NCBI GenBank assembly: GCA_964429225.1
Contig: CAYSAW010000003.1
Coordinates: forward strand, 169,522-233,521
Direction of reading: 5' to 3'
Source: an uncultured bacterium
GTDB lineage: Bacteria > Armatimonadota > DTGP01 > CAYSAW01
Length of the DNA: 64,000 nucleotides
Below the pieces are notes generated by a model. That model was not told the origin of the DNA. It worked only from the letters and a program-made list of their open reading frames with translations, and did no database searches. Positions 1,958 through 60,234 of the stretch are shown here, piece by piece. Each line of letters opens with the position of its first letter. Within the stretch, counting starts at the first letter, position 1. The position numbers were made by a program, and so were the translations under genes.

Positions 1958-3631
1958 ATGAACTATCGTATACCCTACCTCACCACTCAAATCATCCCTT
2001 ACATCGGCAATAAACGAACTCTCTTACCCCTCATTGGTGAAACCTTAAGGCAATACGATGAAAATTATGGGAGAGGGGTCTTCTTCGATCTTTTCGCCGG
2101 TTCAGGAGTCGTCTCCCGCTTGGCAAAAGCTTTAGGATACTCGGTTATCACTAATGATTGGGAGTTCTACGCCTACGTGATTAACCAATGTTATATCCGA
2201 ACTAACGCCTCCGATCTGGACCGGCTGTTTGTCCGCCAAGGGGGCATAGACCAGGTAATTAGAGAGCTGAATCGAGGGATGGAGGTAGGGATTGAAGGCT
2301 ATCTCAGCACCTATTACGCCCCTCGAAAGACAGAGACCGCTGATTACCGTAAAGAACGCCTCTTCTACACTGCCGAAAACGCCCGAGCCATTGACTACGC
2401 CCGCACCGTGATTGAAGACTGGTATCCAGGCTTTGACCTTCCGGAACCCCTTCTTACCGAAAAGTTTATCCTCTTAGCGGTGCTCCTTTATGGATCCGCT
2501 ACTCATACCAATACTTCCGGAGTCTTTAAAGCTTACCATAAAGGCTTCGGGGGACATAGTCAAGATGCCCTTAAACGCATTATGGCCCCCATCCGAATGT
2601 TTCGGCCTGTTCTCATCGACTCCCCCTCGCCGATGTGGGTCCTCTGCGAAGACGCCAATAAGATCGCCGGGTATCGCACGGTGGATATTGCCTATTTAGA
2701 CCCTCCCTATAACCAGCACCAATATGGGAGTAACTATCACCTCCTAAACACCATTGCTCTATGGGATTGCCCTCCTGTTGACAATACTCTCTCTCCTAAA
2801 GGCCATCTCATCAACAAAGGAGGTATACGCCCCGATTGGGTAAAGACCAAGTCACCCTACTGCTACCGCCAAACCGCTCTTACTGCCTTAGAAGACCTTC
2901 TTCAGAAGATAGATGCCCGCCTTATTCTGGTAAGTTACAATACCGAAGGATTGCTAACCATAGATGAGATGATCGACCTTCTGGAGGAGCGCGGAGTCGT
3001 TGACCTAGTTACCAACGAATATGTGCGCTATCGCGGTGGTAAACAGAGTATTCAACGGAAAATCCACAATATTGAATGCCTTTTGATCATCCACTGTGAC
3101 CTCCCCCGATCTTCAAGGAGGCCGACAAAGCAAGTTTATGACCGACTTTGGCAGACCCGATTACGGATACTCCTCCGACAAACTTTCCACCCCCAACGCA
3201 TCAAAACCCTCTTTCCCACTTATCAGGATGAGGGGATTATCCTCACCACAAAGGGCAAGGAGATCCTCTTGCCAATGCGGAGATTCTATCAGTTTATTCT
3301 AGAGCGCATTGATGGGGAAATCCTCACCTCTTGTGAACCTTATTCCTTATACCAACGCCTTGCTCAAGCGGCATTTAAGAACTACGCGGAAGAGATTGAA
3401 GTGCTAACAAACTTTCTATCGGAAGAAACCCAACCAGAAGAAATAAAAATGTTTTCTCAAAGGATTGCCTATCTCTTACGGAAGTTGGCCCACAAGAAAT
3501 ACCAAGAGGTTTTTCATTGCTTGCTTCAACGATTAGAAGAGATACTTCGGCAAAGGAGGGATTTGTTGGAGGAAATCGGTGAAAAGCTCTCTGAAATAAA
3601 GGTCTTGGCTGATAAAAGGTTCAAAGGCTAA
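1958..3631 (+). CDS. Dam/T4Dam-like (D12, alpha-class) N6-adenine DNA methyltransferase with a ~190-aa C-terminal extension of unknown function
   Basis: The N-terminus IPYIGNKRTLLP matches the YTGNKQSLLP signature of D12 MTases. Motif I (FAGSG) precedes motif IV (DPPY in AYLDPPYNQ), the order expected for the alpha class. The MTase fold ends near aa 370. The remaining ~190 aa are predicted helical and carry no recognisable motif. Confidence 0.8.
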   Translation: MNYRIPYLTTQIIPYIGNKRTLLPLIGETLRQYDENYGRGVFFDLFAGSGVVSRLAKALGYSVITNDWEFYAYVINQCYIRTNASDLDRLFVRQGGIDQVIRELNRGMEVGIEGYLSTYYAPRKTETADYRKERLFYTAENARAIDYARTVIEDWYPGFDLPEPLLTEKFILLAVLLYGSATHTNTSGVFKAYHKGFGGHSQDALKRIMAPIRMFRPVLIDSPSPMWVLCEDANKIAGYRTVDIAYLDPPYNQHQYGSNYHLLNTIALWDCPPVDNTLSPKGHLINKGGIRPDWVKTKSPYCYRQTALTALEDLLQKIDARLILVSYNTEGLLTIDEMIDLLEERGVVDLVTNEYVRYRGGKQSIQRKIHNIECLLIIHCDLPRSSRRPTKQVYDRLWQTRLRILLRQTFHPQRIKTLFPTYQDEGIILTTKGKEILLPMRRFYQFILERIDGEILTSCEPYSLYQRLAQAAFKNYAEEIEVLTNFLSEETQPEEIKMFSQRIAYLLRKLAHKKYQEVFHCLLQRLEEILRQRRDLLEEIGEKLSEIKVLADKRFKG

Positions 3632-12162: not shown

Positions 12163-12657
12163 AAGGACTGGATCCACAACCTTAGAACCTCCCCAGCCGA
12201 GAGAAGCCGTTACCCAGCTCCGCCCAAGAAAAAGGACACGAGGCTTCTGGCAGATTTTAACCTTCCTAAGCAAGCAATCCTCTTCGGCTTTCTGGGCCTG
12301 GGCGATTAAGGGGGGAGCGGATACCCTCACTTATCTCGTTCTACTCTTCGCCTCAGGGGTTGTTGCCCTTCAGGTCATCTTATGGTTCTTAATGCGCTGA
12401 GAGGTAAGCTGAAGAAGCAAATAGGGTTTTAAAAGAACGGCTTACCAGGGGCTTCACCCTCCTTTACCCAACCTAAGGGGATAACTCTCCTCCGCACGGG
12501 ATGGAGTCAAAGAATCTTCCCCCATACAAACAAAAGGAGGCTTCGCGAAGCTCTTCGGTTTAGAGTTTAAAAAAGAGGGCAGATAGATGCTTTTCACTTT
12601 AGGACCTTCACAGCCCTGAACTTGACTCCTCCCTCCCCATCCCTTAAGATGAAAAGA

Positions 12658-12730
12658 GGGTGATGGAGTCCACCCAAGGTTAGTTTCAAACGATAAGAAT
12701 TGCCGATTGCGGCTGATGACTCCTGCACAG
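12658..12730 (+). promoter_or_regulatory. fluoride riboswitch (crcB motif) aptamer
   Basis: GGGUGAUGGAGUCCACCC fits the P1 consensus GGnGAUGGnGUyCnCC. The pseudoknot strands GGAGUC and GACUCC are complementary. A P3 hairpin GCCG-AUUG-CGGC is present. The 3' element CUGAUGACUCCUGC resembles the T. petrophila CUGAUGGCCUCUAC. It lies upstream of crcB. Confidence 0.65.
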
Positions 12731-12764
12731 GTACCGCTTTCGACTGTGCAGGAGTCTTTTTATT
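12718..12764 (+). terminator. intrinsic terminator forming the riboswitch expression platform
   Basis: 13-bp perfect stem GACTCCTGCACAG / CTGTGCAGGAGTC with a 13-nt loop, then TTTTTATT. The 5' stem arm contains the pseudoknot strand GACUCC. Confidence 0.7.
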
Positions 12765-12926
12765 GTAAGCAAGGAAAATTCAGGCGGCCAAAACCCTTTA
12801 AGGACAGACATAGTACAAAGCCTAAGACTCCTCAACTTGGGATAGAACACCCTACTAAGGAGGTAAAAGGGGTTGTTGAGTCCAAGAATTTTTCCCCAAA
12901 AGGAACAGGAGGGGAGAAAGGATAAA

Positions 12927-13337
12927 ATGCTGAAGTGGTTTGCGTTCCCAGAAATCCGACTGTTTTTCAAAATGCTAGCCATAGGATTAGGAGGTTTTGG
13001 AGGCTCGATCGCCCGCTATTTCGTTAGCTTGTGGATCAATTATAAACACCGTACCCACTTCCCCTGGGGTACTCTCATTGTTAATCTTACAGGGGCCTTC
13101 TTATTAGGTTTCATTCTTGCTCTTTTGGAGGAGCGAATGCTCCACCGCAGCTGGTATTATCCCCTCTGCATCGGTTTTGTTGGAGCCTATACCACTTTTT
13201 CTACTTTCGTCTTTGAAACCCTTCACCTGGCGAGCAAAGGTAACCTGTTTTATGCTATGAACAACGCTCTCCTCAGCGTACTCCTGGGAGTCCTCATGGT
13301 ATGGTTAGGCCTAGCAACTGCTAAACTTCTGTTATAA
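12927..13337 (+). CDS. crcB: fluoride ion channel CrcB/Fluc
   Basis: GLGGFGGSIARY, GTLIVNLTGAFLLG and GFVGAYTTFSTF are CrcB signatures. GGAGGGGAG RBS. Preceded by a fluoride riboswitch. Confidence 0.85.
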   Translation: MLKWFAFPEIRLFFKMLAIGLGGFGGSIARYFVSLWINYKHRTHFPWGTLIVNLTGAFLLGFILALLEERMLHRSWYYPLCIGFVGAYTTFSTFVFETLHLASKGNLFYAMNNALLSVLLGVLMVWLGLATAKLLL

Positions 13338-17752: not shown

Positions 17753-17784
17753 GGGAGTAGCCGTAGGCTTTAGCCTGCGTTAAG
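17753..17784 (+). repeat. dispersed ~28-nt intergenic repeat, copy a (GGGAGTAGCCGTAGGCTTTAGCCTGCGTTAAG)
   Basis: Consensus GGTAGYCGYARGCTTYAGCCTGYRT with an internal CAGGCT/AGCCTG palindrome. 160 nt upstream of the PaoA-like gene. Confidence 0.7.
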
Positions 17785-28954: not shown

Positions 28955-28982
28955 GGTAGCCGTAGACTTTAGCCTGCGTAAG
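28955..28982 (+). repeat. dispersed repeat copy b (GGGTAGCCGTAGACTTTAGCCTGCGTAAGG)
   Basis: Same family. 80 nt upstream of the sigma r4-like gene. Confidence 0.7.
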
Positions 28983-29063: not shown

Positions 29064-29465
29064 ATGTCCGAATCTTTTGATCCTTCCTCTCCCTCCCCTC
29101 CTCGCAAACGCTCACCGCGTCCTCTTTCCTTAGAAGTTTTGCCCTCCCCTCCCCCAGGATTCCCTCGATCCCTCACTCAAGCCCTGGTTGAGGAACAACT
29201 CCAGGACCTTATCACTACCCTCCCCCTTACGGAGAGGCAGAAGGAGATTGCTATCCTTAAAGTGGTTTGCAAATATCCTCTTCGAGATATTGCCCGCATC
29301 ATCGGGATACGACGGCAAAACGTCGAAAAACAGTGGGTCAAGATTAAGAAGAAATTCAGCAAAGGGCTAAGAGCATTAGAAGAGGAAATTCCTCCAGGGG
29401 CTTGTCCTTACTACGGATGGCAAGAGGTGTTTCTTCAAACGCTGAAACGAAGAGGTAAAAGATAG
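29064..29465 (+). CDS. stand-alone sigma-70 region-4-like HTH protein with a Pro/Ser-rich N-terminus
   Basis: LTERQKEIAILKVVCKYPLRDIARIIGIRRQNVEKQWVKIKKKF resembles ECF-sigma region 4 (L..ERQR.V..L......s..EIA..lgi....V......A). Confidence 0.5.
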   Translation: MSESFDPSSPSPPRKRSPRPLSLEVLPSPPPGFPRSLTQALVEEQLQDLITTLPLTERQKEIAILKVVCKYPLRDIARIIGIRRQNVEKQWVKIKKKFSKGLRALEEEIPPGACPYYGWQEVFLQTLKRRGKR

Positions 29466-29504
29466 CCAAGAATTTCCACAATTTCCCCTGCCCCAGTTTT
29501 AGTA

Positions 29505-29532
29505 GTAGTCGCAGGCTTTAGCCTGTGTAGAG
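29505..29532 (+). repeat. dispersed repeat copy c (GTAGTCGCAGGCTTTAGCCTGTGTAGAG)
   Basis: Same family. Immediately downstream of the sigma r4-like gene and 340 nt upstream of the nuclease-helicase operon. Confidence 0.7.
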
Positions 29533-29871
29533 TCTGAGTCAAAAGGCTGGTACAAGGCCTGTCCCTACCACCTGCGGGGCCTCCACGCTGGGGATCCAGG
29601 GTGGGCGACATACCCTAAAGGATTCGGCTACTTTGAGCAGAGAATTTCCCCGGAGAGGATAAAAGAGAAGAGAGTGGAGAAATAAGATGGGGTTAAATCA
29701 AGGGGGAGACCCGAACAATGAACAATGCCCCCTCCCCTTTAGTAGGGGCACCCCGCAGGGCGCCCCTACCCTGGTCCTCCCCCACAAGGGAGGAGGGAAA
29801 GGGAGGTAACCCCCCTATCCCCCGTCAACGGAGGATAGGAACATCGGAAAAACAATGAGAAGGATCAAGGG

Positions 29872-30807
29872 ATGAAAGAGCGTATAGCGTTGCTTCGTGA
29901 GAAGATTCAAACTCAAAGATTCCTCGGGCAAGACCCCTCTATCGAAATCTCCCCTGGGGAAGAACTAGAAGATCTTTTGGCCAAGTTTCAAACCGCTCTT
30001 GACTTAAACACCCCCTTAGTATGGGGTGATCACCAATACTACCCCGGAGAAAGCCTGGCAGAAACCTTCTTCTATAGCGGTGTCTCAGCCCTCAATTTGT
30101 GGAATTTTGGTCAAGCGAACGACCGTTTCGAACGCGCTGGAAGGCTCACCCATAACCCTCTTTTGGCCCAACGGATAACGCTCTTCCAATCCCTTTTAAC
30201 CCTTGTTCAGGCCCTCTTTGATACAGGCCCCTATAACACACAGGCAAAGCGTAGAACAGGGCTATCTATTGATAGAAAAATCCTCAACCAGGCCCAGCAA
30301 GTCCTTCAAGGCCTTGACCAAATCCCTCCTCAGGAAAAACAACACTACCAGCAGGAAATCCAGCGGTTAGAAGGCTTATCTCAAAAGCTTGCGCAAGAAG
30401 ATCTTCCCATAAGTATTCTTTGGCATTTTGTCCGGGCTAGAAGAAGCGCTATGGAAAACGAATACCTTACCGCTCTTCTTTGGCTTGTCGCTTTGGATAG
30501 CTATCTCACCTACCACTCTGTTTATGTGGAGAAGACGGAATATCTAACCCATCTTCTGTCCGAAACTCGACAATCGTTAAAACAGTTCCTCGGTCTCTCT
30601 CTCGAAGAGGAACAAACCATAGCCTTGCCCTGTGCCCTAGGATCACTCACCACGCCTTCCCGATTCTGGGACCTCTACGATGCTTTTATACCCGCCCTCG
30701 ATCCATTAGGGGTAGACGTTCAACACGATATCGCCCAATTCCGTATCCAACCCTTTATCCCTCCTCCTAACACCCGGACGGAAGAAGACGATGAGCAAGC
30801 ATCCTGA
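29872..30807 (+). CDS. hypothetical protein (311 aa), predicted mostly alpha-helical, no known domain
   Basis: Its 3' end overlaps the start of the nuclease-helicase gene by 17 nt, indicating translational coupling. Confidence 0.55.
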   Translation: MKERIALLREKIQTQRFLGQDPSIEISPGEELEDLLAKFQTALDLNTPLVWGDHQYYPGESLAETFFYSGVSALNLWNFGQANDRFERAGRLTHNPLLAQRITLFQSLLTLVQALFDTGPYNTQAKRRTGLSIDRKILNQAQQVLQGLDQIPPQEKQHYQQEIQRLEGLSQKLAQEDLPISILWHFVRARRSAMENEYLTALLWLVALDSYLTYHSVYVEKTEYLTHLLSETRQSLKQFLGLSLEEEQTIALPCALGSLTTPSRFWDLYDAFIPALDPLGVDVQHDIAQFRIQPFIPPPNTRTEEDDEQAS

Positions 30808-33800
30808 TTGGTTTCGCCTGGGGCAAAACCCTAACATCCCTCTCTATGTGGATTTTCCTGTAATCGCTCGTCATCTTCGGGATCGTTCCCGCGAATCCCA
30901 AATAGTGGTTGACCTTTTCACGGAGGAGGGGGAACGGTATAGCCGGGCCTATATTTTCCCTCAGGAGTGGTATCCAGGGGCCAAGCATTGCCCCCGTTAC
31001 TCCCATTACTTCCATTGTCTGAGAGCGGTCTTTGAGGGTCTGAGATCCTTAGGCGAAGAAGAGAAGATCCGGCTCCAAATTCTTAAGGCCATCTACCTCC
31101 CTCCAACCGCTGAAAGGCGGGGGCTTATTGTGCTTCTTAAATTCATCTTGGCTCCGGAATACGCCATTGAAGGTGCAAGTTTGGAGACCACCTATCAATG
31201 CCCTCTGCGAACCTATCTGGAGGGGTTTATCGGCCTCTCCCGCTCCGTGTTGAAAACTTCGGAGAGCGTGGATTGGACTGCCGGGAAAGCCATCCATCAG
31301 GGGTATCAAAAGGTCACCGAGGGTTATTTATCCTCCTTGTCTGGCTCCTCCAGCCTAAACCTCGAGGGAGTCTATTACAACACTGTCCGGAGGTCTTGGC
31401 GAGAAGATTTTGTACCCCTCCTCCGAAAGCTCCCTCAAAAAGGGCAACCTCTCGCCCACCACAAACTACCTCTTCAAGCTTGCGAGAGTGTTCTTGATAG
31501 AAGTCAAGAAAAGATCGAGTCCCTAGTAAAGTCTTCCCCTCAGTCCTCTTCCCAAGATGTCCCTTCCTTTCATCTCTATTGTGAACGTTTCCTCTATGCC
31601 CCTAACCGAGGTCTCTCGGGGAAGATGGACCAAATGATTCTAGCTCCGGAAGGAGCCTATCTCACCGAGATTAAAACCCGGATCAGCCGTGGCGGGTTAG
31701 AAGTAAAAGACCCTCGAACGGGGCGGGAAGTTCCAGGAGGTCTACAAGCACTGATTTATCAAGAAATCCTCCGGCAAACATCCCACATTCAGCAAACCTC
31801 TATCGAAATCTTTTATAAAGAGGGTTCCGAGGTTACTTGCGAGGAAATTCCGCTAGAACAACACCCCCTATTAAGTTGCTGTAAGAGGCCCTCCCCCGAT
31901 GATTCTCCCTACGATTGGGACCGGTACCTCGATCTCATTGCCCAGAACCGGAACGTCGGTTTTGTTGCTGAAAGTGGGCTACTCACTGGCTATGACCGAG
32001 AACGGATTGCGGAGGTGATGGAAGCTAACCGTTTTCTCCAACCATTAAATCTCAACTACGATTACGTAGCTCGCTTGGCCCCTTGTTCCCTTTGTCCTGC
32101 CCAGCAGAGGGGTATTTGCCCTCACGCTTACCAATATCGCGATACCCCTCTCTGGCCTCACTTCTTTCGCCATATCCCTGAATCCCTCTATCAATACTGG
32201 GCCTACTTCCATCATCTCCTTACTCAAGAGATCCGGCATCTCCGAGAAAGCCTTTATCGCCTCCTTACCACTGATCTTGCCCAACTAGAGGCTGAAGGGA
32301 CGAGCCTCGGAGGTCTTCGGTTGGTTTCAGCCGAAGAAAACCGGATTATTCTTCAACGGGATAGACCTCTAGAAACTAGACTGCGAGAAGGAGATCGAGT
32401 CCTTCTATCTCCGGAATGTAGTTCTCCCCATCGCCTTACCCAAATCATCAGAGGGAAGGCTCCCGCAACCCTTTCCTCCTCGCAAGAGGGAGAAACTCCC
32501 TCAGAAATGATGCCCCTTTTCCTCTCTATTGAGGGGGAAATCGAGGCCCTAGAGACTTATAAGATAATCCTTAATGTGAAGGATATCAGCCTACCTCCTG
32601 TAAAAACCTATAGGGTAGACCAATTCTTCCATCTTTCTCTAGCCCGATGGCAGATCCAAGGTTTAACCGACTTTCTCGTGAGTTCGATGATGGCGGTATC
32701 TTCCCGGGGGCGAAGGGTTTCTGAGGTCGAGCTCCCTCCTCTGACTCAACTCCTTTTAGGGATAGAAGACCCCTCCCCTTTAACAAAGGGGTATCCCTCC
32801 TCAAGCGAAGAGAATCCTGACCTTTCTGCTGATGAAAAGATCTCCCGCTTTATCCCCCCCTTTGCCGAGTTGAATCCTGAGCAATTAGCAATCCTTCGGA
32901 AGGTTCTCGCTTTGCCCAAAGGCGACTTTCTCCTTATCCAAGGCCCTCCAGGCACAGGCAAAACTCACCTTGTGGCTTGTATGATCGAAGCCCTGGTACG
33001 CCAACAGAAAACCCTTCCTACTTCAGAGGAGGTTCCTGTTTTAGTTCTCACCAACACTCACCGGGCAGCCAACGAAGTGGTGAAAAAACTTCATCATCTT
33101 TGGCAGAAAGGAAACCCCTCAACTGAGGAAATCCGTCCCGACTTGATCCGGATTGGCCCACCTCGGCCAGGATGGGAGCCCGAAGTCCGACAATATACTT
33201 TAATCGAGCGTTTAAAAGTCGCTCATCGGCTACCCTCTCCTCCCTATGGGGAAAAAGAGTGGAGGGATTTTATTACTCTTTTGTATGAAGGGGATACTCT
33301 TTTAAAGCAAGCAAAAATCTTTGTTGGTACCTTGGGAAGCGCGCAAGCAGAGGAATTAAGGGGACGGTTTTTCGCCTATACTATCGTAGATGAAGCGGGT
33401 CAAGCCACGGAACCTGCAACTCTTCAGGCTCTTCGCCATCTCCCTCCAGGTTATGCTGGCCGACTCATCCTAGTAGGAGACCATCAGCAACTACCCCCTG
33501 TTGTTGAAGGACAGCATCCGACTTTTTCCAAACCGCCTCTGACCTCTCCTCTCAAAAGAGCTGGTTTCCGAGAAGAGGATACTCTGCAAACCTCCCTTTT
33601 TGAGCGATTGGCCCGCTTATACCCTCATCGCCTCTTCCTATTAGAGAAACAATACCGGATGAACGAACCTATCTGTACCCTAGTAAGCAAAACCTTCTAC
33701 GAGGGAAAGCTTCAACCGGGACACCCCGAGATTGCTTTGGCTCATCTGGAGAAATGGCTCCCAGAGGGAGGAGAGACCCTCCTTGGGGAGGAAGATTGGG

Positions 33801-34360
33801 GAGAAATTTGGAGCCCCCGCTACGCGATTGTCTTCCTCTGCACTGATGAAGACCCCCGGGCTAAGGATCAGGGGGAGGCAGAAAGCCGATGTAACCACCG
33901 AGAAGCCCAGCTGATCGCCCAAATGTTGGGTACCCTCCTCCAGAAACTACCAGTAGACCGGCGGCCCCAAGTGGAAGAAGGTATTGGAGTTCTTTCCGCT
34001 TACCGTAAGCAAAACAACCTGATCCGCCAGTATCTAGAAGAAGTAGGGATAGGTCAGAATATTCGGGTAGATACCGTAGATCGCTTCCAAGGAGGCCAAA
34101 AACCGGTAATATGCATTAGCTTAGTCAACCACAACCCCGAAGGTAGTATCGGCCTCCTACACTCTGACCCACGGCGTTTCAATGTAGCCCTCTCCCGAGC
34201 CCAGTATAAACTCATTTTAGTAGGAAGCCGACAAACCTTCACTCGCTTAAGGGGAGACACAGAAGATTCGGCAAAAGAGAAATATCTTCAACTCTTTCAA
34301 TTAATCGAGCAGATGGCTGAAACCGGTAAAGCTCTGATCCTCTCTACAAAAGACCTTTGA
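30791..34360 (+). CDS. Dna2-like nuclease-helicase: unknown N-terminal domain, RecB/Cas4-family PD-(D/E)xK nuclease with a Cys cluster, and C-terminal SF1B (Upf1/Dna2-like) helicase
   Basis: Nuclease motifs GKMD(280)QMIL, YLTE(293)IK(295)T and Q(319)ALIY(323) give the D...ExK...QxxxY pattern. The Cys cluster is C264...C432-x2-C435-x7-C443. Helicase motifs are Walker A GPPGTGKT (aa 717-724), DEAGQ, LILVGDHQQLPPV, VDRFQGGQK and RRFNVALSRAQ. Confidence 0.85.
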   Translation: MSKHPDWFRLGQNPNIPLYVDFPVIARHLRDRSRESQIVVDLFTEEGERYSRAYIFPQEWYPGAKHCPRYSHYFHCLRAVFEGLRSLGEEEKIRLQILKAIYLPPTAERRGLIVLLKFILAPEYAIEGASLETTYQCPLRTYLEGFIGLSRSVLKTSESVDWTAGKAIHQGYQKVTEGYLSSLSGSSSLNLEGVYYNTVRRSWREDFVPLLRKLPQKGQPLAHHKLPLQACESVLDRSQEKIESLVKSSPQSSSQDVPSFHLYCERFLYAPNRGLSGKMDQMILAPEGAYLTEIKTRISRGGLEVKDPRTGREVPGGLQALIYQEILRQTSHIQQTSIEIFYKEGSEVTCEEIPLEQHPLLSCCKRPSPDDSPYDWDRYLDLIAQNRNVGFVAESGLLTGYDRERIAEVMEANRFLQPLNLNYDYVARLAPCSLCPAQQRGICPHAYQYRDTPLWPHFFRHIPESLYQYWAYFHHLLTQEIRHLRESLYRLLTTDLAQLEAEGTSLGGLRLVSAEENRIILQRDRPLETRLREGDRVLLSPECSSPHRLTQIIRGKAPATLSSSQEGETPSEMMPLFLSIEGEIEALETYKIILNVKDISLPPVKTYRVDQFFHLSLARWQIQGLTDFLVSSMMAVSSRGRRVSEVELPPLTQLLLGIEDPSPLTKGYPSSSEENPDLSADEKISRFIPPFAELNPEQLAILRKVLALPKGDFLLIQGPPGTGKTHLVACMIEALVRQQKTLPTSEEVPVLVLTNTHRAANEVVKKLHHLWQKGNPSTEEIRPDLIRIGPPRPGWEPEVRQYTLIERLKVAHRLPSPPYGEKEWRDFITLLYEGDTLLKQAKIFVGTLGSAQAEELRGRFFAYTIVDEAGQATEPATLQALRHLPPGYAGRLILVGDHQQLPPVVEGQHPTFSKPPLTSPLKRAGFREEDTLQTSLFERLARLYPHRLFLLEKQYRMNEPICTLVSKTFYEGKLQPGHPEIALAHLEKWLPEGGETLLGEEDWGEIWSPRYAIVFLCTDEDPRAKDQGEAESRCNHREAQLIAQMLGTLLQKLPVDRRPQVEEGIGVLSAYRKQNNLIRQYLEEVGIGQNIRVDTVDRFQGGQKPVICISLVNHNPEGSIGLLHSDPRRFNVALSRAQYKLILVGSRQTFTRLRGDTEDSAKEKYLQLFQLIEQMAETGKALILSTKDL

Positions 34361-55800: not shown

Positions 55801-57483
55801 CTATCTCATCGCTTGATTCAGCAGATCCCCAAACTCCTCTAACAAATCGTACCTTCTAAGCCAAGTGGTGTACATCAGCCCTCGAACTTGAGGGGTCTTG
55901 CGAGCTAAAGCAAGCCAATCCTCCACATCTTTCAAGGTGTCCGCATCATAGTAACAAGCGATTAAGGTCTGAAAATTCCGGCTGGCGAAGAAGCGTAGGC
56001 TATTCTCTCGAGGCTCTCCCCCCCAAACTGCAATTACTAAATCTTTAGGGACATAATTCCAAGAGCCTGTAAAATCCCCTTGCACCAAGTAGTAGTTGCT
56101 GTGGGCATTATGATGAGGGTCCAACATATCCGACCAGATGTAGATCTGGGCTTTGGGGTTATATTTGCGAAGGATTTGCACCTCCTTGGTAACACATTCC
56201 CCCAATAACCGAGCCATACTCTTCCCTTCACACCGTTTACAGGTTCCTCCCATTCGCACTTCATCCATACTCAAAAGAATACGCTTGGGATGAAGATATT
56301 TTGCCAGCAACTGGGCTTCATGGTCAAAGATTTCATAAAGCTCTGGCTCCGCCATACAAACGGTGACCTGATCTTGGTAAATCACCATCGGATGGTACCA
56401 ACTAACTCGCAACCGCTGTCCCTCTCGAATACAACTGCCCTTTAGGATTTGCAAGGAGGGAGCTTCCCGGTCTACATTGTAAAAATTAAAATCAGGGTCT
56501 ACGAGGGGAGCATAATCTTTTCCCTCCTCATAAATCACATTGCCCTCTTCACTCCGGACCGTAACAGGAGTCCCCGGACGCCGTAAAACGTTGATAGGGC
56601 CTACCTCTTCCAGGGTAACATCATCTAGCCATACCTTGCCTTCCCGCCCTCCCCAAACCCCCGCATAAAGACGGACGGAGTCGTAACCGAGGCTGTTAAA
56701 GAGGAGGGTTACCTTACGCCAATCGGAAGAGGGGGGAATATCAAATTGGCGAGGGGCCAAATCCCGGTCTCCCGCGAGGACCAAAATACGGAAGAGATTA
56801 CTAGGCCTTAGGCCTTCTGTTCTCACCCATAGACTTACCCGATAACACCGATAGGGATGGACTTTTACCTCCTGCATCACTCGGGCATTGCCCGCTGGCT
56901 GAGCAGAGAAATTTTCCATACGGATAGAAGTTTTGCCGCTGTGAACGATTTGGTGGTCCGGGAAGCTCACTACTCCTGGCTCATCGTGGAAGTTCCAACC
57001 CCGAAAGCGGTTACCTTCCAACTCTTCAAAGCCTCCATTAACCAAGCGCACTGGCGGATCGGGAAGAAGAAGCCCTCTTCCTTCTCGAACAATAAACAGA
57101 GCCTCTTTAACCGGCAGACCCTCGGCGAGATTCCGATTATGGGAAAGAACCCCTCCTCCATAGCCAATAGAAAAAACACTGGGGATCAGCTCCAAACCAT
57201 TGTGCTCACAAAAGGCCTTTACCTCTTGAAGCCGGCGAAAGTATTCGGGAGGCTGTTTACAGAGGATGTCTAGGTTGGCTGAAAGTACAGCCCCGTTATA
57301 GCCGTGCTTGGCTGCCCTTTCAATAATTTGACGCAGAACTTGGACATCCTGATCCCTGCGGAGGCTCCATCCGAAAAGCCATACAAAACGATCTTGGAAA
57401 GCGCTTAAAGAGTTACCTGGGGCTAACAATCCCATCACCACCAAAAGGATAAGAAGCTTTCCGAAAATGGGAAAACGGATCAT
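55801..57483 (-). CDS. secreted hypothetical protein with a central CBM4/9-like carbohydrate-binding module
   Basis: Signal peptide MIRFPIFGKLLILLVVMGLLAPGNSLSA. NGGFEELEGNRFRGW is typical of CBM_4_9. It is embedded in the arg gene cluster. Confidence 0.5.
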   Translation of the reverse strand: MIRFPIFGKLLILLVVMGLLAPGNSLSAFQDRFVWLFGWSLRRDQDVQVLRQIIERAAKHGYNGAVLSANLDILCKQPPEYFRRLQEVKAFCEHNGLELIPSVFSIGYGGGVLSHNRNLAEGLPVKEALFIVREGRGLLLPDPPVRLVNGGFEELEGNRFRGWNFHDEPGVVSFPDHQIVHSGKTSIRMENFSAQPAGNARVMQEVKVHPYRCYRVSLWVRTEGLRPSNLFRILVLAGDRDLAPRQFDIPPSSDWRKVTLLFNSLGYDSVRLYAGVWGGREGKVWLDDVTLEEVGPINVLRRPGTPVTVRSEEGNVIYEEGKDYAPLVDPDFNFYNVDREAPSLQILKGSCIREGQRLRVSWYHPMVIYQDQVTVCMAEPELYEIFDHEAQLLAKYLHPKRILLSMDEVRMGGTCKRCEGKSMARLLGECVTKEVQILRKYNPKAQIYIWSDMLDPHHNAHSNYYLVQGDFTGSWNYVPKDLVIAVWGGEPRENSLRFFASRNFQTLIACYYDADTLKDVEDWLALARKTPQVRGLMYTTWLRRYDLLEEFGDLLNQAMR

Positions 57484-57502
57484 CTCTCTGAAGCCCACCC
57501 TT

Positions 57503-59776: not shown

Positions 59777-60205
59777 CCTCCTGTTTCTCCTTTCCTTAAA
59801 GGCTGGCTTAGCCTCTCAGAGCCTCCCAAAACACAAAAGTCTCCTTTAGAGTCTTCTAATCTCAAAAAGCCTCTTGGACCTCTGGGTTGTCAGGAGTAGA
59901 TAGAGGAAGGCCAGAACCAAAGGTTCAAACTCGGAATCGCTCCCTAACCCTTCTCTGGTTGATCCAGACCTTACCTCCCTGATTCCCTTTCTCAACTTTT
60001 TGGGCTCATTTTCAGTGTAAACTCTCTCTTCTAGCGAAGTCAAAGACCCCTTGAGCTAAAGAGAGTTTTATCATAAGGGCAACCCCCAATCTGGGCCAAA
60101 GTTTGGCCTGCTTTAAAAGGACGTTCCTTAGTTCAAAGGGCTAGGCTTCCGATGAATCCTTAGGTTTGGTAGCGTTCCTTTCCGGTAGGGTTTCGGTAGT
60201 CGCAA

Positions 60206-60234
60206 GCTTCAGCCTGCATCCCCTCCCTCGCCCG
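60206..60234 (+). repeat. dispersed repeat copy d (GGTAGTCGCAAGCTTCAGCCTGCATCCCC), with a degenerate partial copy at 60323..60348
   Basis: Same family. Located in the 700-bp intergenic region between argD and the PDZ/radical-SAM gene. Confidence 0.6.

Follow-up and report, generated by a model that had tools for sequence, protein, structure and literature searches.

The stretch of DNA analyzed here, called the window in the following, comprises 64,000 nucleotides (nt) from an uncultured bacterium assigned to the Armatimonadota (contig CAYSAW010000003.1 of assembly GCA_964429225.1, forward strand, positions 169,522 to 233,521). It carries an operon of two genes, A and B. Gene B encodes a Dna2-type nuclease-helicase, and the small product of gene A is proposed to be its partner (Table 1). 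Both open reading frames (ORFs) and their 17 nt overlap had been described in an earlier sequence-only reading of this DNA and were found at exactly those positions. All residues named there for B were also present, namely D280, E293-I-K295, Q319-x3-Y323, C432-x2-C435-x7-C443, and K724.

Table 1. Position of the operon, its upstream region, and the domains of B in the window, and of gene C in Thermomicrobium roseum.
Feature	Position	Strand	Size	Remarks
133 aa helix-turn-helix (HTH) protein, sigma-70 region-4-like	29064-29465	+	133 aa	below-threshold matches; possible regulator
Leader	29466-29871	+	406 nt	palindrome GCAGGCTTTAGCCTGTG at 29511-29527; GC-rich hairpins at 29742-29769 and 29814-29839
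Gene A (ORF A)	29872-30807	+	311 aa	ATG start; proposed non-catalytic partner subunit of B
Overlap of A and B (B start codon to A stop codon)	30791-30807	+	17 nt	translational coupling
Gene B (ORF B)	30791-34360	+	1189 aa	ATG start; Dna2-type nuclease-helicase
B residues 1-125	30791-31165	+		conserved beta-rich N-terminal domain, unassigned; in the place of the oligonucleotide/oligosaccharide-binding (OB) domain of Dna2; from the secondary structure of the model
B residues 126-445	31166-32125	+		RecB-family PD-(D/E)xK nuclease with iron-staple cysteines (C137; D280; E293, K295; Q319, Y323; C432, C435, C443)
B residues 464-634	32180-32692	+		helical stalk and beta-barrel between nuclease and motor; model elements H464-502, E505-611, H616-634
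B residues 690-1150	32858-34240	+		helicase core of superfamily 1B (SF1B), Upf1/Dna2 type; Pfam AAA_11, AAA_12
Gene C of T. roseum, TRD_RS12350	L033, 12395-13009			

We aligned 19 members of the B family with 40–86% identity to the window protein. Neither the nuclease nor the helicase motifs of B were degenerate, as they were invariant across this alignment. The helicase motifs of the window protein are GPPGTGKT (residues 718–725), DEAGQ (867–871), GDHQQLPPVV (896–905), VDTVDRFQGG (1093–1102), and NVALSRA (1131–1137), and motifs I (Walker A), II (DEAGQ), III, V, and VI did not vary. In Pfam, the helicase half (residues ~690–1150) matched AAA_12 with an E-value of 2e-47 and AAA_11 with an E-value of 2.5e-34, far over the thresholds. 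The nuclease motifs G277-x-x-D280, E293-I-K295, and Q319-x3-Y323 are located N-terminal to the motor, and D280, E293, K295, Q319, and Y323 were conserved in every member. The invariant motifs and the Pfam matches bear out the earlier description of B as a Dna2-like nuclease of the iron-sulfur (Fe-S) type fused to an SF1B helicase.

Four cysteines, C137, C432, C435, and C443, are invariant in the 19 proteins, and the last three are spaced as CX2CX7C. One N-terminal and three C-terminal cysteines make up the iron staple known from AddB, Dna2, and Bad (PMC7430649), and such an Fe-S arrangement of C137 with C432, C435, and C443 is predicted for B. On the N-terminal side, C137 within the motif 'YxCP' is conserved, whereas C264, located just ahead of the nuclease core of the window protein, is not. 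The first ~250 aa of B had been considered unknown. This has to be corrected for residues ~126–250, which belong to the nuclease domain because the invariant C137 completes the iron staple as its fourth cysteine on the N-terminal side. Residues ~1–125 were indeed without assignment and had no sequence match in the PDB; within this domain, E59-W60-x-P62 and S71-H72-Y73 are invariant in the alignment.

The window protein itself did not reach any of the nuclease models of Pfam. Among nine relatives of B, five matched PDDEXK_1 (PF12705), the best of them at an E-value of 3.9e-13. When the N-terminal 680 aa of B were used as query, 22 protein clusters were retrieved. Most of these were full-length proteins (~1100–1190 aa) with 90–100% query cover, and a precomputed match to PF12705 was available for many of the clusters. 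Scans of the B N-terminus against Pfam, PADLOC, NCBIfam, and PHROGs resulted in nothing apart from a PADLOC match to Cas4 in one of nine members (E 0.024).

When a profile of the family was compared to all PDB sequences, mouse DNA2 was the top match (E 9e-63), and the alignment started at profile position 448, well ahead of the helicase. The profile of only the N-terminal 660 aa gave chance matches to PDB sequences (complement C8 gamma). An AlphaFold model of B was built from the 19-sequence alignment (predicted local distance difference test, pLDDT, 82; predicted template modeling score, pTM, 0.86). It consists of the beta-rich residues 1–125, the nuclease, the stalk and beta-barrel (464–634), two RecA-like domains, and a C-terminal helix, in this order. 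In a Foldseek search with this model, three Dna2 crystal structures ranked first with an E-value of 8e-44, ~1240 aligned columns, and a target-based template modeling score (TMt) of 0.62–0.64, followed by the helicase-only matches IGHMBP2 and Upf1 at E 1e-29. The model superposes on the Dna2 fold with barrel and stalk included. The homology of the nuclease to Dna2 was visible only by the fold and by the PF12705 matches of the relatives. Based on the motifs, the Pfam matches, and the first rank of DNA2 in both the profile and the Foldseek search, we concluded that B is a genuine nuclease-helicase of the Dna2 type and that its motifs are intact. By analogy to such enzymes, B presumably has endonuclease activity on single-stranded DNA (ssDNA) and translocates in the 5'→3' direction.

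Protein A lacked a family match in Pfam, PADLOC, NCBIfam, and PHROGs, in agreement with the earlier view that it lies outside any described family. Word-indexed searches retrieved two proteins when the single sequence was used and four, A itself and three relatives, when an alignment was used. The family became visible only by a hidden Markov model (HMM) search of the ORFs adjoining B homologs. In an exhaustive HMM search, 37 proteins were found among 1.84 billion cluster representatives; most of them have 275–331 aa, the upper value being the maximum, and a few are short fragments. None of them was visibly fused to another domain. The model of A, built from the 4-sequence alignment (pLDDT 77, pTM 0.72), is all-helical except for one short hairpin, and its fold matches are proteins of the tetratricopeptide repeat (TPR) type. 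The model suggests that A may be a TPR-like helical solenoid, and no catalytic fold or motif was apparent in model or sequence. Invariant in the family are an N-terminal 'RF-G-DP' motif and the residues W77, Q100/R101, D149, Y159, W184, and R188.

We scanned one genome per species from 185,579 species with B-specific patterns and obtained 28 loci, not including the locus of the window itself. All named genome loci among the 28 belong to the Chloroflexota (Thermomicrobiales, Thermomicrobium, Thermalbibacter, Dehalococcoidia, and Chloroflexia metagenome-assembled genomes). The surrounding ORFs were searched by HMM or phmmer, and in 25 of these loci a homolog of A immediately precedes B. A metagenome scan added 48 loci, 34 of them with A upstream of B. 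The remaining metagenome loci comprised ten with a third gene, C, upstream of B and no A, one with neither gene, and three that were too short to tell. All A homologs found in the examined loci adjoin B (59/59). A plausible B start overlapping the A stop by 1–20 nt was present in 24 of the 26 loci with both genes, including the window and its closest relative, and the other two loci have a spacer of 650–730 nt instead. The pairwise identities of A and of B across loci were correlated (Spearman 0.87). We concluded that A and B are a co-inherited unit with overlapping stop and start codons across the Chloroflexota. The pairing of both genes, put forward from the window alone, is real, conserved, and translationally coupled. 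It is also undescribed, as had been suspected: the pair is absent from Pfam, NCBIfam, PADLOC, and PHROGs, and no paper on it was found.

The compared loci are labeled by L-numbers (L004, L033, etc.). The closest relative of the window operon is located on the metagenomic contig L004. The A proteins of both are 62% identical (67% over aligned codons) and the B proteins 86% over the full length and 84% over the N-terminal 680 aa. Both genes are under purifying selection in this comparison, with dN/dS of 0.17 for A and 0.10 for B. The identity of the window B to Chloroflexota proteins is only 40–45%, and the G+C content of the window is ~50%.

Four architectures were observed: A-B-C in the majority of loci, A-B in the lineage of the window, L006, and L010, C-B, and B alone in L005 and L034. 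Gene C encodes a protein of ~170–220 aa with a helical C-terminal half and the invariant residues C22, C53, H56, C58, and C64 (L014 numbering), which constitute a Cys4-His motif (Cys-...-Cys-x2-His-x-Cys-x5-Cys). Scans of Pfam, PADLOC, NCBIfam, and PHROGs gave no family match for C. It overlaps the stop codon of B in 19 genome loci and is located upstream of B in two more; coupling to the B stop was seen in L007, L009, L011, L013–L018, L020–L023, L025–L032, and L033. Gene C is absent from the window and from L004, L005, L006, and L010. In T. roseum DSM 5159, the RefSeq annotation lists the three genes as TRD_RS12340 ('hypothetical'), TRD_RS12345 ('AAA domain-containing protein'), and TRD_RS12350 ('hypothetical'), with overlaps of 8 nt between A and B and 11 nt between B and C. 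This trio resides on a 918-kb non-mobilizable replicon, which was the sole plasmid match. A relationship of C to A was rejected (hhalign probability 0.2%), and the same applied to the HTH protein upstream of the window operon as a diverged copy of C (hhalign probability 0.2%). The loci L005 and L034 represent a sub-clade of the B family with a longer N-terminus and neither A nor C nearby. Since B stands alone in these loci, it can exist without accessory genes.

An HTH protein and a leader precede the operon of the window, and both had been noted before as a stand-alone sigma region-4 regulator and a structured, repeat-bearing leader. The HTH protein matched sigma-70 region 4 only with scores below the curated cut-offs (22.9 bits vs. 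25.7 in Pfam and 33.2 vs. 42.9 in NCBIfam). The predicted fold of the leader is somewhat more stable than that of shuffled sequence (z-score −3.4) and contains hairpins, and no Rfam family was found for it. A 25-nt repeat, probably the one seen in the sequence-only reading, contains the palindromic 17-mer GCAGGCTTTAGCCTGYG. Allowing up to three mismatches, this palindrome is present at four intergenic sites of the window (17763–17779, 28962–28978, 29511–29527, and 60202–60218), while 0.25 sites are expected by chance. Two of the copies bracket the HTH gene. The palindrome could be a binding site for a regulator or a small dispersed repeat. We rejected it as an operon-specific operator, because the four intergenic sites identify it as a dispersed motif. 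The HTH gene, which was found only in the window and L004, and the leader are common only to the window and this closest relative and are therefore outside the conserved module.

The ~150 nt 5' of the A start (29716–29871) contain two GC-rich hairpins in the window. In L004, the equivalent stretch is coding (~355–450), and the A homolog of L004 has an N-terminal extension over the stretch that matches window positions 29716–29871. The start of A therefore differs between the two lineages.

Upstream of the operon, the window harbors genes for a major facilitator superfamily (MFS) transporter, ribosomal protein S15, and polynucleotide phosphorylase (PNPase), the latter two at a distance of ~4–6 kb. 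Two S-adenosylmethionine (SAM) methyltransferases, an aldo-keto reductase, PhyH, and dihydrodipicolinate synthase (DHDPS) are encoded downstream, and these downstream genes are common to the window and L004. Lon, a hydantoinase, a ComM-like protein, glycosidases, and metabolic genes are found elsewhere in the window, which contains no mobile-element genes. The flanks of the other loci consist of housekeeping genes that differ between clades and are syntenic within them. The order is MFS, S8 peptidase, upp, and A-B-C in Thermomicrobium; a Memo-like gene, A-B-C, and a glycosyltransferase in a group labeled as Dehalococcoidia; and MgtE, A-B-C, an enolase-superfamily gene, and EAL/HDOD in Thermalbibacter-like genomes. 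A comparison of 117 flanking proteins with PADLOC and Pfam yielded metabolic and transport families. No enrichment of defense families was seen among these proteins, only isolated generic matches (GlgB, one Ser/Thr kinase, and one helicase). B-specific searches of 50,697 phage genomes and of IMG/VR gave no match. The pattern fits a vertically inherited chromosomal function rather than a defense island, although a housekeeping role is not proven by it. With syntenic housekeeping flanks, no enrichment of defense genes, and nothing in phages or IMG/VR, the defense slant of the sequence-only reading was not sustained.

Several other features of the window were observed. A fluoride riboswitch (Rfam RF01734, 45.3 bits) at 12650–12732 lies upstream of the gene for the fluoride channel crcB (12873–13337), which is a textbook arrangement. 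The first ~270 residues of a 557 aa protein, encoded at 1958–3631, constitute a D12-class N6-adenine DNA methyltransferase domain, and its C-terminal half has no assignment; the gene is 26 kb away from the operon, and no link is suggested. An ORF of 565 aa on the reverse strand (55801–57498) had no Pfam match at E 1e-5. Neither rRNA or tRNA genes nor cyanobacterial HIP1 repeats were found in the window.

Among known systems, eukaryotic DNA2 (mouse structures 5EAN, 5EAW, and 5EAX) is the best profile and structural match of B over the whole length. Both have an N-terminal domain, a RecB-type nuclease, a beta-barrel with stalk, and an SF1B motor in the same order, and both have one N-terminal and three C-terminal nuclease cysteines. 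The positions D280 and K724 of B are close to the active-site positions D277 and K654 of human DNA2. Differences were nevertheless clear: the identity is only ~19–24%, the cysteine spacing of B is CX2CX7C, and the N-terminal 125 aa of B have no detectable sequence similarity to Dna2. B is bacterial and encoded in an operon together with a putative TPR-like partner and usually a Cys4-His protein, whereas RPA, Sgs1/BLM, and replisome partners as in eukaryotes are not known for it.

DNA2-like proteins of bacteria have been described as Bad and its relatives in Firmicutes and Proteobacteria, with a second class in Mycobacteria and Rhodococcus (PMC7430649). Bad from Geobacillus stearothermophilus is an Fe-S protein with activities as ssDNA endonuclease, 5'→3' translocase, and helicase, and its nuclease is located ahead of the motor (PMC7430649). 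Like B, it combines an Fe-S nuclease N-terminal to an SF1B motor with sporadic occurrence and is annotated only as 'AAA' protein. Bad has 1245 aa with a gap of 665 residues between D150 and K815, while the gap between D280 and K724 of B is 444 residues. It also has an extra domain of unknown function and adjoins a Type III-like methyltransferase. Because of the different motif spacing (D150/K815 vs. D280/K724), B appears to be in a class apart from Bad (WP_053413574); this comparison was based on motif spacing and on the published description of Bad. The account of DNA2-like proteins in PMC7430649 mentions neither conserved partner genes nor a Chloroflexota class, and we found no paper that links Dna2-like proteins to Chloroflexota.

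The helicase-nucleases of other systems differ more strongly. Nhi is a single polypeptide with nuclease and helicase that acts on DNA intermediates (PMC11084316), and the sequence-only reading had drawn a parallel to it. This parallel did not hold, since Nhi is a single-gene defense system and the operon consists of two or three coupled genes without defense-island context. In PADLOC, moreover, B had no match beyond the generic helicase core, its N-terminal 660 aa having none apart from the weak Cas4, with no check of whether this library contains an Nhi model. In Mokosh (MkoA/MkoB, MkoC), MkoA models matched the helicase core of B with an E-value of 8.8e-75, but only over residues 691–1178, and the nuclease of Mokosh, present as a separate MkoB or fused in MkoC, belongs to the phospholipase D (PLD) family, while that of B is N-terminal and RecB-type. 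No PLD domain was detected in A or B by Pfam. AddAB, RecBCD, and AdnAB are multi-subunit helicase-nucleases with a RecB-family nuclease, which has an iron staple in AddB, and a role in end resection is possible for B as well. These enzymes, however, have an SF1A UvrD-like motor, a C-terminal nuclease, and large partners with helicase-like folds, in contrast to the SF1B motor, the N-terminal nuclease, and the 311 aa partner found here. The locus has every testable defining feature of the Dna2 type and lacks those of the Nhi, Mokosh, and AddAB types.

Taken as a whole, we consider it probable, with some reservation, that this chromosomal operon couples the translation of a Dna2-type enzyme, B, to that of A, a TPR-like protein that is dedicated to B and non-catalytic, with a function most likely in genome maintenance. 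As for Dna2 and Bad (PMC7430649), B would engage ssDNA at a free 5' end or a flap and thread the strand through the nuclease. Driven by ATP, it would move 5'→3', the nuclease leading the motor, and cut ssDNA. Coupling would provide A, and C where present, in a fixed ratio to B. Both may serve as adaptor or gating subunits that recruit B to a substrate or partner or restrain its nuclease, with C as a putative metal-binding accessory subunit in most lineages. From the gene arrangement only, we infer that A and B interact physically; most simply, A would be a scaffold that targets or gates B. The cellular role is the weakest step, and 5'-end resection or the processing of flaps or stalled forks within genome maintenance is the most likely one, with anti-phage defense less likely.

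Several observations weigh against this interpretation. A stable context is compatible with defense, as some defense genes are chromosomally stable. The usual spacing of the cysteines is CX2CX5C, and B has CX2CX7C. A Cheo-type LexA box (GAAC-N4-GTTC) was absent upstream of A, with four weak matches in 58 loci. B occurs without A in the C-B clade (two genome and ten metagenome loci) and without both accessory genes in L005 and L034, and A is therefore not obligatory. Bad, a related enzyme, has a Type III-like methyltransferase as its neighbor (PMC7430649), and Nhi, also a nuclease-helicase, confers immunity (PMC11084316).

An alternative is an Nhi-like module against phages or plasmids, in which B would recognize and degrade replication intermediates of the invader and A (and C) would be a sensor or regulator. 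We regard this as rather unlikely. The nuclease-helicase architecture is common to Nhi-type immunity (PMC11084316), the helicase half of B strongly matches the PADLOC models of MkoA, MkoC, and DpdJ, the distribution is narrow and patchy with varying accessory genes (A-B-C, A-B, C-B, or B alone), and the methyltransferase next to Bad also speaks for it. However, the PADLOC matches are confined to the generic SF1B core (residues 691–1178), and nothing but the weak Cas4 match was found for the N-terminal 660 aa of nine members. The 117 neighbors were not enriched for defense genes, the housekeeping flanks are kept within clades, and the module is absent from the phage and IMG/VR collections.

That B acts on RNA instead, as a surveillance or decay enzyme similar to Upf1, Sen1, or Mokosh with A as an adaptor, is improbable. 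The RNA helicases Upf1, Senataxin, IGHMBP2, and Sen1 come next after Dna2 among the helicase structures closest to B, MkoA of Mokosh is the best PADLOC match, and PNPase and S15 are encoded in the vicinity of the window operon. Dna2 was nevertheless the sole match that spans nuclease, barrel, and motor together, the proximity of PNPase and S15 was not seen in the other loci, and a PLD nuclease of the Mokosh kind is missing from A and B. Judged by the established behavior of Dna2 and AddB, and by the findings on Bad (PMC7430649), ssDNA is the substrate of a RecB-type nuclease that has an iron staple and precedes an SF1B motor. Hardly credible is a mere packing of the operon, with A functionally unrelated to B. 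The lineages that have B without A would be in line with this, but it conflicts with the adjacency of all 59 A homologs to B and with a stop/start overlap that is kept in 24 of 26 loci across classes with otherwise different flanks. The tiny size of the A family, whose members all stand alone and are similar in size, also argues against mere packing.

The interpretation as a Dna2-type enzyme with a dedicated partner in genome maintenance can be extended. A-B(-C) would then be a hitherto unrecognized multi-subunit bacterial Dna2 holoenzyme and the main machine for 5'-end resection or flap processing in Thermomicrobiales, Dehalococcoidia, and related Chloroflexota, and the TPR-like adaptor and the Cys4-His metal protein would take the roles that RPA and the RecQ-family partners have for eukaryotic Dna2. 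We consider this extension rather unlikely. If it were true, the eukaryote-like layout, including the N-terminal domain, would be informative for the origin of Dna2.

A DNA2-like enzyme in bacteria is already a known kind, and the operon is not a categorically new system; what is added are the proposed dedicated accessory subunits and the Dna2 layout over the whole length. Knowledge on bacterial Dna2-like enzymes comes from essentially one biochemical study, that of Bad, and the B family represents a distinct class that matches the layout of eukaryotic Dna2 from end to end. As far as we found, A and C are the first proposed accessory subunits of such an enzyme that are conserved and translationally coupled to it, and they therefore offer direct experimental handles on how it is targeted or restrained. 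The full three-gene version is carried by T. roseum DSM 5159 (TRD_RS12340 to TRD_RS12350). A functional context would emerge for three families that have been orphans, namely A, C, and the B N-terminal domain. Our data suggest that a phylum rich in thermophiles may process DNA ends with a machine other than RecBCD, AddAB, or AdnAB, and the locus is a testable lead for research on helicase-nucleases and on genome maintenance in the Chloroflexota.

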